The notes under the pieces are model-generated. The model had not been told where the DNA came from. It saw only the letters and a list, made by a program, of their open reading frames with translations, and searched no databases. Of a stretch of 64,000 bases of DNA, positions 10,629 to 50,800 are shown one piece after another; position 1 is the first letter of the stretch, and each line of letters begins with the position of its first letter. The translations under genes and the position numbers were made by a program. The stretch comes from Octopus vulgaris (Eukaryota), in NCBI GenBank assembly GCA_951406725.2, contig OX597828.1:8990001-9054000 (forward strand), read 5' to 3'.

Positions 10629-10659
<31 letters not shown>

Positions 10660-10732
10660 AAGAAGAAGAAGAAGAAGAAGAAGAAGAAGAAGAAGAAGAA
10701 GAAGAAGAAGAAGAAGAAGAAGAAGAAGAAGA
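10548..10732. repeat. Compound (TAA)n/(GAA)n microsatellite
   Basis: Direct reading. Confidence 0.97.
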
Positions 10733-11203
10733 AAACAACCATACTCTGGGATATGCCGATACACATAGAGAAATTAAGGCCAACAGACCAGATATAGTTG
10801 TCAGAGATCATGAAGAAACAAAATGCTTTCTAATTGATGTATCAATACCAGCAGATGACAACGTTTCTCTAAAAGCCATGAGGAAACTTTCAAAATACAA
10901 AGACCTGGAAATAGAGATAACCAGAATGTGGAATCTAAAAACAGAAACAATTCCTATCATAGTAGGTGCATTAGGCATGATAAAAAAATATTCAGACAAA
11001 TACATAACAAAAACACCAGGACTTACAAATACATATAACATACAGAAAATTTCACTACTAGGCACTGCACACATCCTACGCAGAGCACTTTCCATTCAGT
11101 AATCATCAGAGCATCACAACAAACCACATCACATACCCAGTGCACACATAGCTGCGCTCGGCAGGGAAGTGAAAGCACGCTATAAAACTAAAACTACTGA
11201 ATG
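10733..11203 (+). mobile_element. R4/Dong-type LINE 3' fragment with restriction-like endonuclease (copy 2)
   Basis: REIKANRPDIVVRD...CFLIDVSIPADDNV..K..KY.DLEIEITRMW...IPIIVGALG = PD..D..K RLE motif; stop at 11102; followed by a (TAA)n tail. Confidence 0.88.
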
Positions 11204-14473: not shown

Positions 14474-14539
14474 AAGAATCTTTTATTTATTGGCCACTAG
14501 GGCTGAACACAAAGTATAGCGAACGATACGTAGACGAGG

Positions 14540-15900
14540 GACAATGAGGTTAAAATTTTAAACAGCCCCTCCAGCTTCCGCAGTAACGACTTGAGTGCCG
14601 GTAAGTAGAATAGGGCTGATAGTGGCCTTACTTGTCGGATCGAACGTGCGATACTAAACGATTGCAAGAGGAGGCCATTTACTTTAACCACGGAACAGAT
14701 TTCGCTATACATTGCAGCGTTGCAGCCTCTGAAAACGGGAGCAAAACAAGCCGCCTTGAGAACAGCCTTCAAGTATAGATGGTGGACCATATCAAAAGCT
14801 TTCGATGGATCCAAAAGTATTAGGGACGCACCCATGCCATGTTCTTTAACAAGCCTCTCTATGATGTATCATGTGAAGTGGAGGTTGTCATGTATATTTT
14901 AGTTAGGGATAGTGATAGTCGGCGCATCACCAACCAGTCTGTCAACGAGAAGCGCCAACCTCTTCGCTAACACCTTGGCCAAAATTTTGTAATCTGTATT
15001 TAGCTCAGCTAGAGGCCTAAAGTTATCAACAATGTGCCCATTGTTGGAATCCTTTCTCAGTAGCGGTTGACTCTTCCCCAAAAGCTCACCAAACAAGTTT
15101 GGTATATGTATATAATGCTCGAAGGTCAGACCAGCCAATCCTAAACACATCTCCCTCGTGCAACTAGCCACGACGTCGGTTATATCTTCAGCTGTTATCT
15201 GCATTTCGCATAACTCCACGTCCCTGGCCGAAAGCCACGGCGTACCATCAAGGTAGCAAATGAAGTTGACCTCCGCCTCCGTACCACCACGTGCCGTGTA
15301 GAGTTCAGCAAAGTGCCGCTCAAATTCCGCAAAAATCTGCTTCGATTCTTTTAGCATGCGCCCGTCCCTACTTCTCAAATACCACATTGGGTCTCAGCCA
15401 CCAGACCCATCGAACGGCTTTAGAGCACGCATCCTAGCCCTAACAATGTAACATTCATGCTTGGTGTCGAAGAATTGGTTCAGAACCAATCTCGCTGCTA
15501 GCACCTCGGTCCTATGCCTCTACGCGTGAATCATTTAACTTTCTAACTAGGTCTCCCTCTACTCTAGTTTTTGTCAGTTGTTCTCCGCTAATTCTGCAGC
15601 TTCTACTCCTATTGCACGTTTTAGGCCCAACCACCACTGGTTGTTAACGACTGCCCTCCCCCTCCCCGTCAACATTTGATGGACTATTTTGGTTAACCGG
15701 TCTCTGGGAGCTTGACGCGCCGGGGAAGACGTGTTAAGCTTCCAGTATCCGTGTCCCTACCTATGGAGCCTATTTGGGCAGCCGTGCAGATCACAAACTT
15801 TTGTTCTGTTTTGTTGACGAACTGAAACTTTAGACCTGTCCGCCAGCTGGAAATGACTAAGCAGGTTTGCGAGGTTTACGCACACGCTTTCTTAACCGCT
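14540..15900 (-). pseudogene. Decayed L1/Tx1-clade LINE ORF2 fragment (reverse transcriptase)
   Basis: DNFRPLAELNTDYKILAKVLAKRL, LLDPSKAFDMVHH, SIRQVRPLS (degenerate RQGCPLS) and a G.GYWKLN-like motif near 15750; many stops. Confidence 0.85.
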
Positions 15901-21467: not shown

Positions 21468-22761
21468 TATAAATCTCTATCTTATTACAGCAATTAAAAT
21501 TCGTCGCATACATCTACTCTCAACCCCAGTCGTTAAATATTTACTGAAAGAATTTAGAAATTACCATAGAACATGGGAATTTACTTCAATAAGATTCAAT
21601 CATACCTTCCTGAAGTGAATATATGTTCGTCACAAATTGCAGTTGCATCAGATAACAACTTTGGAAAATTATAACACCCAAAATATGTGTAATCTGCACG
21701 GAAGCATATGCTAAATCTTACTGTAAATTTGAGTGTATTTGACTTTGATATACTTTAAATATCTAATAAAATATTTTGTCTTCACATTTATAGGATTCCT
21801 TAATTTCGTCAAATCTCAAATGAGAGCAAAAAAAAAATGATAATAATAATAATTATGAGTATTTTCGCATAGATATCGATAGAAAATTCTTGAACCGATT
21901 CTATTTCAAATACAAAATGTACAAATAAAAGTTCATTCCCTCAATATTTCACTTTAAAAAAAAAGTTGAATTATATATTGCTAATCTGAATTCTACAACT
22001 GGTATGATTTATTCAAAGAAATACATATCATCGGTGTTAATTTAGCAAAGGTAAACACAAAAAATCTAATTAGTTTCAAAAAAGTTTGTTGTCAGAATCG
22101 ACCAAATCAACTTTTGATAACCAAATACACATTCTAATTAAGTTTCTTTCTTTTTTTTTTTCCTACTTTCCTTGAGTAGAAACGTAAAAAAATAAAACTT
22201 AACTTTAATGATCAATACTAAGTTGTCAACCTATATATCTCGTTTCAGAAATTCAAGAGAAATGTTTAAACATGCTCTGAAAAAATAAAAATTTGTACTA
22301 TTTTTTCTCCTTAATAAATTGTATTGATCAGCAAATGAAATTTGATAGCACAAAGCTTTTTTTAACTTAATTTCTTCTAAGTTTTATAATATTGATACTT
22401 GCTTGTTCCATATGAAGTGAAATTAAAATTCTACGCAGAAAATGTTAAGGAAATCATTGAAACTGATATAGGAGATACAGTAAGGAACATTCTAACATTG
22501 ATTTCTCAATGTGCAATATATGCTCACGATTTTAACGTAATACACAAAGAAAAAGAAACCAGTGTGCCTACATTCACACAGACATTCCCCTACAATCACA
22601 CACTCACATACTCAGACACATACTCACAAACACAGAGACACACTTAAACACACACTGAATGCTGTCGATCGCTTTCCATAAAGATTATTTTTTTACCTTT
22701 CTTTAAAAGAAATCCTACAGATGTTTCTGTGAAAGTGTGAAGGTCCTTAGTAAATGTTTAA

Positions 22762-22820
<59 letters not shown>

Positions 22821-22825
<5 letters not shown>

Positions 22826-23609
22826 GAAATATTAAAATTACTAAGTCTCTCTAAAAGAGATTACGGCAGCGTTACTGGAAATTAATTGTTATCGCCATAT
22901 TAATATGGCAGTCTTATAGATATAAGACTAAAAGCTGTCGCTGATCAGCCCCATGAGGCCATCGCCTTAAGATAGCTATTTGACACACAAACTGTGTCCA
23001 TTATAACCTTCTGTAGGATTTCTTTTAAAGAAAGGTAAAAAAATAATCTTTATGGAAAGCGATCGACAGCATTCAGTGTGTGTTTAGGTGTGTCTCTGTG
23101 TTTGTGAGTATGTGTCTGAGTAGGTTATAATGGACACAGTTTGTGTGTCAAATAGCTATCTTAAGGCGATGGCCTCATGGAGCTAATCAGCGACAGCTTT
23201 TAGTCTTATATCTATAAGACTGCCATATCAATATGGCGATAACAATTAATTTCCAGTAACGCTGCCGCAATCTCTTTTAGAGAGACTTAGTAATTTTAAT
23301 ATTTCTATTATTGAAAACAAGTGTATGTATTCCACCGAAACTAGGTAAATAAAACCGTCGAACAGAGACGATCAGTGGCGAAACCTGCTGGGTCGACTAC
23401 GCTACATTGACAAAGGGCAAATACCCTGAAACGCGTCTGTAGCTGTCTGACTGGCAGTGTGAAGTGGCTGACCTCCCTTGTTCGAAGGTTATAATGGACA
23501 CAGTTTGTGTGTCAAATAGCTATCTTAAGGAGATGGCCTCATGGAGCTAATCAGCGACAGCTTTTAGTCTTATATCTATAAGATTGCCATATTAATATGG
23601 CGATAACAA

Positions 23610-23613
<4 letters not shown>
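22821..23613 (+). mobile_element. Retrozyme/Penelope-pLTR-like insertion: inverted arm, captured flank, 364-bp monomer and partial repeat, within (TA)n
   Basis: 22821-23009 is the inverse of 23122-23310; 23486-23613 repeats 23122 onward; 23010-23121 is the reverse complement of host 22610-22721. Confidence 0.85.
23401..23443 (+). ncRNA. Minimal type I hammerhead with mutated core (probably inactive)
   Basis: GCTACA-TTGACAA(for CTGACGA)-AGGG caaata CCCT-GAAA-CGCGTC|TGTAGC; perfect stems I and II; palindromic ACGCGT stem III. Confidence 0.75.
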
Positions 23614-23648
<35 letters not shown>

Positions 23649-24519: not shown

Positions 24520-25260
24520 TAAAAAATCAGTGTTACAACTGTGTCAGGGAGTTGTCATGGCGATACCTTCCCAGAGGCCTACGCAAATTTGCAGAAAGTG
24601 CATGGAGACGAGTACACAAGCCTCACACAAGTGTACGAGTGGTTCAGACGTTTCCAAGATAGATGTAAAGATGTCGATATTAAGGAAAGTTCTGGAGGAC
24701 CCGCAACCAGTAGAACTGAGAAAAACTTCGCTTATGTGCGTACAGGTATGAGGGGAAATCGTCAATTCACAATGCGTGAGTTATCGGAGGATGAGAAGAA
24801 TAGTTGCGATTCAGCTCAGTCCATTATCACTGAAGATTTGGGTATGAGACGCGTGTTTGCCAAGTTTGAGCCAAGACTGCTTCCAGCAGACTAATATTAC
24901 ACTTGGGTTTCATTTGCACAAGATCTCCTCGATTGTGTCGAGAAAGATGAAAATCTTGTTGAAAACTTTGCGTAGGCCTCTGAGCAGTGATCGCCAAGCT
25001 TTAGTCGAACTTTGATGCAGATTCTCTGCTCACATTTCTCTCTCATATGATGATCACACGCTACACACCTTTCTTCCAAGCATTGCTATGTACACACCTT
25101 TCTTACAAGCATTGCTATGCACAACGGTAGTGAGGCAGAGCCATGAAGCTTAGTGCGCATGCACAACAGAGTTCAAAGTCAATCTGTGCCAAGCAGCTTT
25201 ACTTTGCGTGTTTAGCTTCGTTACTATAGCAACAGTCCTGATATTTATTAATGAGACTAC
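24520..25260 (+). mobile_element. Mariner-derived non-autonomous element (transposase HTH remnant plus long right TIR)
   Basis: ORF 24541-24894 EAYANLQKVHGD..TQVYEWFRRF..SGGPATSRT..IITEDLGMRRVFAKFEPRLL; same family as 34478-35213. Confidence 0.82.
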
Positions 25261-49239: not shown

Positions 49240-49411
49240 TTATGAATTATGAATTATGAATTTTCTGGTTGATTCCGTAATGGAATCGGCGGCTTATATT
49301 TATTTGCTGCCGATAAATTTGGCGCGAGTGCGATGATTTGAAAATTTTAGGTCAGATATTGCCGAGGCAGGGACAGAAATGCCTAGTGAAAATATCTGTT
49401 CCGTTCTGGCT

Positions 49412-49518
49412 ATTTTTTACTGAGGAATCTAAGGGCCTATGGAAGATTGGCTTGATTTAATTTAATCAGGTTAGTTTACCATTAAACAGTAGATGAAACG
49501 GTGCATCGTATAAGAAAT
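49412..49518 (+). ncRNA. Type I hammerhead ribozyme, unit 1
   Basis: ATTTTTTA/TAAGAAAT (one G.U); CTGAGGA 49420-49426; ATCTA..TAGAT; GAAA 49495-49498; ACGGT-GC-ATCGT; GTA| at 49510. Confidence 0.85.
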
Positions 49519-49900
49519 TACAGGGTAAATGTTTTTTTAATTTTCTCCTGGTTTACGGAATTAATGTTATTTTTGCGGTTGAAGCTTTGGCTGTTATTTC
49601 TAGTGGGTGAATGGCCTATTATGGCCGTTCCTTGATTGTGATGTTGAACTTATAAATGGTCTAAGACTATTTAATTTTTTCCCACTAGGCCGCTGGTGGC
49701 AAAAAATTCTACCAAATTTTTTTGCCACCCTATATTGATTAATTATGAATTTTCTGGTTGATTCCGTAATGGAATCGGCGGCTTATATTTATTTGCTGCC
49801 GATAAATTTGGCGCGAGTGCGATGATTTGAAAATTTTAGGTCAGATATTGCCGAGGCAGGGACAGAAATGCCTCGTGAAAATATCTGTTCCGTTCTGGCT

Positions 49901-50007
49901 ATTTCTTACTGAGGAATCTAAGGGCCTATGGAAGATTGGCTTGATTTAATTTAATCCGGTTAGTTTACCATTAAACAGTAGATGAAACGGTGCATCGTAT
50001 AAGAAAT
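49901..50007 (+). ncRNA. Type I hammerhead ribozyme, unit 2
   Basis: Perfect 8-bp stem I ATTTCTTA/TAAGAAAT; CTGAGGA 49909-49915; GAAA 49984-49987; GTA| at 49999. Confidence 0.87.
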
Positions 50008-50391
50008 TACAGGGTAAATGTTTTTTTAATTTTCTCCTGGTTTACGGAATTAATGTTATTTTTGCGGTTGAAGCTTTGGCTGTTATTTCTAGTGGGTGAA
50101 TGGCCTATTATGGCCGTTCCTTGATTGTGATGTTGAACTTATAAATGGTCTAAGACTATTTAATTTTTTCCCACTAGGCCGCTGGTGGCAAAAAAATTCT
50201 ACAAAATTTTTTTTGCCACCCTATATTGATTAATTATGAATTTTCTGGTTGATTCCGTAATGGAATCGGCGGCTTATATTTATTTGCTGCCGATAAATTT
50301 GGCGCGAGTGCGATGATTTGAAAATTTTAGGTCAGATATTGCCGAGGCAGGGACAGAAATGCCTCGTGAAAATATCTGTTCCGTTCTGGCT

Positions 50392-50498
50392 ATTTCTTAC
50401 TGAGGAATCTAAGGGCCTATGGAAGATTGGCTTGATTTAATTTAATCAGGTTAGTTTACCATTAAACAGTAGATGAAACGGTGCATCGTATAAGAAAT
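50392..50498 (+). ncRNA. Type I hammerhead ribozyme, unit 3
   Basis: As unit 2; CTGAGGA 50400-50406; GTA| at 50490. Confidence 0.87.
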
Positions 50499-50720
50499 TA
50501 CAGGGTAAATGTTTTTTTAATTTTCTCCTGGTTTACGGAATTAATGTTATTTTTGCGGTTGAAGCTTTGGCTGTTATTTCTAGTGGGTGAATGGCCTATT
50601 ATGGCCGTTCCTTGATTGTGATGTTGAACTTATAAATGGTCTAAGACTATTTAATTTTTTCCCACTAGGCCGCTGGTGGCAAAAAAATTCTACAAAATTT
50701 TTTTTGCCACCCTATATTGA

Positions 50721-50800
<80 letters not shown>

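Follow-up and report, generated by a model that had tools for sequence, protein, structure and literature searches.

In L1 twin priming, a second cDNA is started on the RNA by the other cut strand, and the outcome is an inverted 5' part with a microhomology joint. Inverted ends are also a feature of Penelope-like elements (PLEs). Their inversion has been explained by self-priming on an antisense template (PMC3846280), and their tail by endonuclease resolution (PMC8557442), while the available texts of PMC8557442 and PMC11167929 still describe the origin of both as unresolved. According to the latter account, both strands are cleaved and extended in vitro by a PLE protein that uses two start sites bounding the tail and is predicted to act as a dimer (PMC11167929). 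PLEs have also been proposed as the mobilisers of retrozymes (PMC7229834; bioRxiv 10.64898/2026.07.22.740005).

The locus described here lies in Octopus vulgaris (assembly GCA_951406725.2, contig OX597828.1, positions 8,990,001 to 9,054,000). This stretch of 64,000 nucleotides is referred to as the window, and positions are given within it. The locus carries an inverted copy of neighbouring host DNA, A', which sits between head-to-head arms of a 364-bp repeat.

Layout of the insertion

The original host segment, A, occupies 22610..22721 (+), some 40 bp beyond the outer edge of the left (TA)n tract, and was identified as the template of the captured copy by alignment, by genome search and by its flanks in other sequencing runs. 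The (TA)n tract at 22762-22822 supplies the left half of the target (22762..22819); most ends in the family adjoin (TA)n. The left arm, B' (22820..23011, -), runs for 192 nt from monomer position 190 back to 363, with its 'long', tailed 3' end facing outward. The tail is a 61-nt segment (22820..22880, -; monomer 130-190), delimited by the clustering of family 3' ends at 129 and 190, and has no counterpart at the right end of the insertion. A' follows at 23010..23121 (-) and carries one derived change, at 23087. The right arm (23122..23614, +) is 493 nt long and comprises the full 364-nt monomer plus positions 1-129, so that its 'short', tail-less 3' end also faces outward. The right half of the (TA)n target lies at 23613..23646.

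In inversion, A and A' are identical at 111 of 112 positions, the sole mismatch being T22644 in A, which is C in A'. Alignment places four mismatches in 189 positions between B' and B, and three in 129 between B and the partial second repeat, B2 (23486-23614). The match of B' to the family sequence continues for another 2 nt, so that the TC at 23010..23011 (+) belongs to both B' and A'; this microhomology is the putative site of fold-back priming. The A'/B junction has 1 nt of homology.

An earlier note on this DNA had described the order of segments as A ... B' - A' - B - C - partial B, with a B+C monomer of 364 bp and a 2-nt TC microhomology at the B'/A' junction. Alignment gives the same order, the repeat period is 364 bp, and the microhomology is real. 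The same note took A to be host DNA from outside the family consensus, and this holds: when 22640-22760 was searched against the genome, both of the two candidates returned were A and A' themselves. With no genomic matches besides these, A is ruled out as a component of the family.

The structure is confirmed as a genuine insertion, although its junctions are without independent confirmation from other runs. Three of four other sequencing runs contain an unbroken contig that passes through A into its native flanks, with T at 22644. A is therefore the original and A' the copy. No contig of the four runs bridges the B'-A' or A'-B junctions, which is not evidence of their absence. Assembly fold-back is an unlikely source of the structure, because the arms differ at four sites and end at family-specific sites, and because capture of the same type recurs elsewhere.

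Elsewhere in the window, at 49252-50728, a 491-bp unit is repeated three times in tandem between simple repeats, the copies being near-identical (99%); the match to a hammerhead-like pattern is a loose one only, and the array could be another young tandem element. An open frame of 123 aa at 24523-24894 (+) is presumably a fragment of a mariner-type transposase. Open frames at 10632-11102 (+) and 14497-15393 (-) resemble fragments of the endonuclease and RT of non-LTR retroelements.

A non-coding hammerhead retrozyme

The inserted element, a non-coding 364-bp repeat with a type I hammerhead, matches the metazoan non-LTR retrozymes in its features (PMC7229834). The monomer falls within the range of 150-450 bp for a tandem unit, and its GC content of 41.5% (151 G+C in 364) is below 45%. 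No ORF of 110 aa or more was found across the element. An ORF combining RT and GIY-YIG, the criterion for an autonomous PLE, is absent, and the element is a passenger, not an autonomous PLE.

The hammerhead (23401..23443, +) has the canonical type I form expected of a retrozyme, with a helix I of 6 bp, a helix II of 4 bp, a short palindromic helix III and a U3-A8 core, as delimited by covariation and alignment. The U3-A8 core occurs in 144 of 147 family units and is described as a natural hammerhead variant (PMC4209133, PMC3088659). Compensatory changes affect helices I and II across the 147 units; the pair 293-306, for example, is A-U in 93, G-C in 33 and G-U in 20. By its predicted structure the hammerhead is real. 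Rfam, at gathering and E-value thresholds, did not detect it and returned chance matches only. The hammerhead is carried by a longer predicted hairpin with approximate boundaries at 23352..23490 (+) and a base near monomer positions 352-6, based on the fold of the family majority sequence. Cleavage is predicted after 23437, and family arms run through this site without a pile-up of 5' ends, which would be compatible with a circular or uncleaved template.

Exact-pattern searches returned 187, 99 and 1,077 matches, which puts the family, older subfamilies included, at about a thousand copies or more. The longest arms consist of tandem units and reach 2,015 nt. Examples are an arm of 1,705 nt (4.7 units) in L025 and one of 2,015 nt (5.5 units) in L117. 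Two rare alleles recur across the units of L025 and in both of its arms, as expected from rolling-circle copying.

The nested inverted repeats had been put forward as a source of dsRNA and a potential ADAR substrate, a claim that finds no support. If the locus were read through, the best fold would pair B' with B along 186 nt, and the A:A' pairing would not form. In the first 106 loci there is no sense-strand excess of A>G (3.08 per kb vs 2.87 for T>C), and hence no sign of ADAR-edited templates among the retrocopies.

A rule for the two ends

The family was mapped at 186 loci in three sets: 106 were found by similarity or by an internal 25-mer, 20 by the long end and 60 by the short end. Rows were omitted for L023 (a duplicate of L022), L028-L030 (the same array as L025), L031-L032 (the present locus), L127 (complex) and L027 (no outward arms), and L113 and L114 were each counted once.

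The 3' ends of the family are bimodal, lying at monomer positions of about 129 and about 190. One end of each type is found in 92 of 96 classifiable two-armed copies (39/41, 8/9 and 45/46 in the three sets), which leaves four copies that break the rule; 11 further two-armed copies are unclassified, having one end outside both clusters. One-armed copies in the first set split 27:27 between the end types, and independence therefore predicts that half of the two-armed copies should be mixed. For the first set, pairing departs from independence with P=4e-10.

The arms of a copy differ in extent as well as in end type. In 58 of the 92 copies neither arm is contained in the other, and these arms are therefore not copies of each other. 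The long arm consists of tail sequence only in 19 copies, and lies inside the short arm in five, among them the present locus. Subfamily markers agree between two arms 237 times and disagree 43 times, and a rare allele is common to both arms in 9 of 72 copies, although B' shares none with B or B2. Such sharing favours one apparent source for the two arms, without proving one molecule, and could stem from a single source locus or from later gene conversion.

Arm-arm joints overlap by at least 2 nt in 63 of 94 cases, a count inflated by BLAST end extension, compared with 16% in simulation. About five copies that can be read as 129+190 were entered as single matches, their arms being joined by an internal palindrome. 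Minimal two-armed copies (L139, L143, L159, L184 and L119) are near-perfect mini-palindromes with one tail, joined at a 16-nt internal palindrome (monomer 101-116) or at a neighbouring hairpin. Arms stop within positions 352-6, a zone picked after the first set, at 2.8 times the rate found elsewhere (51/4171 vs 148/33806). Both arms of the present locus stop at the base of the hammerhead hairpin, at positions 363 and 1.

An autonomous PLE of the same genome was reached through L079, a composite copy. This family (L193-L224) has 753-aa open frames, a GIY-YIG domain that falls narrowly below the Pfam cut-off (E=2e-4) and, upstream of it, a CxxC motif of the kind described for Neptune/Nematis (PMC8557442). 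Many copies are near-identical, with about a hundred equal-score matches among the 150 scored, and they are often two-armed; the family is very young. Copies were chosen from the match list as opposite-strand pairs, regardless of their ends. A tailed end (~45-50 nt) is combined with an untailed one in 18 of 19 classifiable two-armed copies, two more being unclassifiable. The end rule thus extends beyond the retrozyme family to an unrelated autonomous PLE.

This PLE was considered as a sequence-related partner of the retrozyme and rejected, as the retrozyme monomer has no similarity to the 32 loci of this one active family. Nor was an autonomous partner with sequence similarity found among 20 inspected tail-end matches of the 1,077, all of which are retrozyme subfamilies.

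L079 itself (1339-2950; G000:C4 near 46.36 Mb) holds, at a single (TA)n site and with both ends tailed, a retrozyme arm running from 190 back to 358, then an inverted piece of 88 nt, then a copy of the autonomous PLE that is truncated at its 5' end. It may be an insertion of two RNAs that names the mobiliser, or two successive insertions.

Capture of host DNA

Local host DNA is found at the 5' end of an arm at three further loci of the 186, or about 2% in all with the present locus. L091 is one-armed, its arm stops at 364, and its capture is an inverted 84 bp starting 26 bp from the junction. L167 has 54 bp in direct orientation between its arms, with homologies of 3 and 2 nt. In L041 the capture is a direct 218 bp, later tandem-duplicated, and neither arm stops in the stall zone. 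The scan for captures covered 95 arm ends in 87 loci where non-element DNA adjoins, and a cross-locus null using the flanks of other loci gave an expectation of 0.1 matches. It missed L091, which was found by BLAST; consequently, short captures in simple sequence are undercounted. All four captures are consistent with a nascent end that took as its template a target strand ending in 3', the kind of strand that resection at a double-strand break should leave, though orientation alone is not diagnostic.

The expectation in the earlier note that spacers between arms would generally match DNA within ~200 bp of the insertion mostly fails. Direct arm-to-arm joins predominate, and capture as the normal spacer of the family is ruled out.

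L154, L127 and L079 were left out of the count of host captures. In L154, a one-armed copy lies between 88-bp direct repeats (1418-1505 and 1943-2029), which represent either a target duplication of unusual length or a templated copy in direct orientation. L127 contains a 238-bp inverted duplication (1019-1256 and 1940-2177; 98%) of host DNA together with a divergent family member that has a different tail, and is possibly a further capture.

Proposed integration mechanism

The locus is probably the product of one retrozyme insertion in (TA)n, in which both cut strands primed reverse transcription through a PLE enzyme acting in trans and the 112-bp host copy arose by fold-back of a stalled arm. 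What is observed is a pair of outward arms ending at 190 (left) and 129 (right), with A inverted between them and homologies of 2 nt and 1 nt at the joints. From this we infer the enzyme, the use of one RNA, the resection and which of the two ends copied A.

The process would begin with a GIY-YIG endonuclease cutting both strands within (TA)n. Each 3'-OH would then prime on RNA at one of two fixed start sites, 61 nt apart, the template probably being one circular or multimeric molecule held by an RT dimer. At the foot of the hammerhead hairpin both cDNAs would stall, one at position 363 and the other at position 1. As their ends are of the same polarity and cannot anneal, they must be end-joined. 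By means of TC, the left cDNA end would anneal to the resected strand that had primed it, some 100 nt upstream, be extended by about 110 nt, and then be released and joined to the right arm. Extension might be carried out by the RT or by a host enzyme (e.g. Pol theta), a host microhomology repair polymerase being a guess.

The pairing of ends (92/96), the non-nested arms (58/92) and the same rule in the autonomous PLE (18/19) make it probable that the two cut strands each started one arm by priming on RNA. The earlier note had drawn a parallel with Penelope-type integration, and this is borne out by the inverted 5'-truncated copy, the tail at one end and the (TA)n target. Templating on nearby target DNA during integration, which it also proposed, is the best explanation of A'. 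Its further suggestion, that B' was made by a switch onto the nascent copy, is disfavoured by the same counts and by the outer end of B', which coincides exactly with the second 3'-end site of the family (190), as well as by two changes in B', 60G and 64G, that are absent from B and B2. Among the points against the preferred reading, B' lies inside the longer arm, so that copying of nascent cDNA is geometrically possible at this locus, and the available text of PMC11167929 reports no strand difference in start sites.

A rather doubtful alternative keeps two-ended priming but attributes A' to the right arm invading the left flank, or the insertion to two separate RNAs. Orientation cannot tell either from left fold-back, and invasion of the other strand by the right arm gives an identical sequence, so that the fit of all four captures to the 'primer strand' reading does not discriminate. 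Homology is greater at the left junction (2 nt) than at the right (1 nt), and the one-armed L091 shows the same inverted capture without a second arm. As for two RNAs, L079 joins a retrozyme arm to a PLE arm, which suggests that two RNAs can meet in one insertion. The alleles 60G and 64G are likewise found in B' and in neither B nor B2, and 64G is also known from an older subfamily, but B' lacks the alleles linked to 64G there. The rule of one end each is also simpler to explain on one RNA.

It is unlikely that a single cDNA, primed at the right end, passed from RNA to host A and then to its own nascent strand (B') before being joined at the left. This route yields the same sequence here, with B' inside the right arm and starting within 2 nt of B, and cDNA-onto-cDNA snap-back is described as the commoner R2 snap-back class (PMC11371274), which the 88-nt piece in L079 resembles. 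However, it needs B' to have stopped by chance exactly at the family's other start site, and a long arm inside a short one is found in only those five of 92 copies. The stall zone accounts for the coincident 5' ends of B' and B. The context of the TC homology is GAAGG, which is of the RNA type, rather than GTAGG, which the nascent strand would have offered at A'/B.

Addition of A' after insertion by break repair at the palindrome centre, or its creation by assembly fold-back, is very improbable: long inverted repeats are fragile and the joints are unbridged in the four runs, but the divergence of A from A' (1/112) points, within a wide error, to an age no younger than that of the arms as judged against the family majority (10/683), both arms have their stops in the family stall zone and not at random resection points, they differ at four sites, and parallel captures exist at other loci.

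The preferred reading of two-ended priming can be extended to PLE enzymes in general, in a form that has an even chance of being correct. Integration would proceed by obligate double priming, in which a dimer holds one RNA with two fixed sites and extends one of them from each strand of a double-strand cut, thereby making the inverted pLTR and the one-sided tail. The ends, being of the same polarity, would pass to host microhomology repair, and about 2% of events would copy 50-220 bp of neighbouring DNA. Retrozyme circles would be mobilised in trans, and rare rule-breakers such as L079 would be two-RNA events.

Comparison with known systems

Insertions of EN+ Penelope-like elements resemble the present locus in having an inverted 5'-truncated copy, a tail at one end and a (TA)n target (PMC3846280, PMC8557442, PMC11167929). 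Their tail is given in these accounts as 30-40 nt, compared with 61 nt here, on a non-coding passenger. The PLE of PMC11167929 is reported to show no difference in start site between strands, whereas here each end has its own site, in 92 of 96 and 18 of 19 copies.

Metazoan non-LTR retrozymes are likewise non-coding tandem units with a type I hammerhead, occurring as dimers to multimers (PMC7229834; bioRxiv 10.64898/2026.07.22.740005). Their available descriptions mention no head-to-head arms, tail or fixed 3' ends, all of which are present here, and the word 'inverted' has no occurrence in the main text of PMC7229834. A pLTR homologous to the retrozyme was not found in the one active PLE family compared.

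For the host copy, the closest parallels are R2 snap-back (PMC11371274, PMC11331408) and the inverted duplication of flanks at L1 insertions (bioRxiv 10.1101/2024.12.14.628481). In both, as proposed here, a nascent 3' end is described as priming on nearby target through about 2 bp of homology, and an inverted copy of the flank adjoins the insertion. Those cases concern non-LTR elements in cultured cells or tumours, in contrast to the assembled animal genome studied here. In two L1 examples it is the unextended reciprocal end that folds back (bioRxiv 10.1101/2024.12.14.628481), while here both ends carry cDNA, and the host copy therefore ends up between two element arms. L1 twin priming differs in that its second site is an internal chance match and there is no overlap between its arms, whereas the present family has two fixed sites and arms that mostly share sequence.

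Published precedents thus exist for inverted arms, for a tail at one end only, for a pair of RT start sites and for the copying of target DNA by snap-back. In the literature searched, the main texts of openly available papers, neither a rule of one site per end nor local host capture was found for PLEs or retrozymes, and inverted-arm anatomy was not found for a retrozyme. To these systems the present locus adds an end rule with counts from two families, a retrozyme that shows the corresponding anatomy, and a measured figure for how seldom host DNA is captured. Host capture is a rare repair scar of a known kind, whose main use is to mark a double-strand break that stood open during integration and had its ends resected. 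The recurrence of one anatomy in a retrozyme provides mechanistic support, independent of phylogeny, for the proposed mobilisation of animal retrozymes by PLEs. Finally, a rule of one start site per end in two unrelated families argues against self-priming and makes a sharp prediction for the in vitro system.
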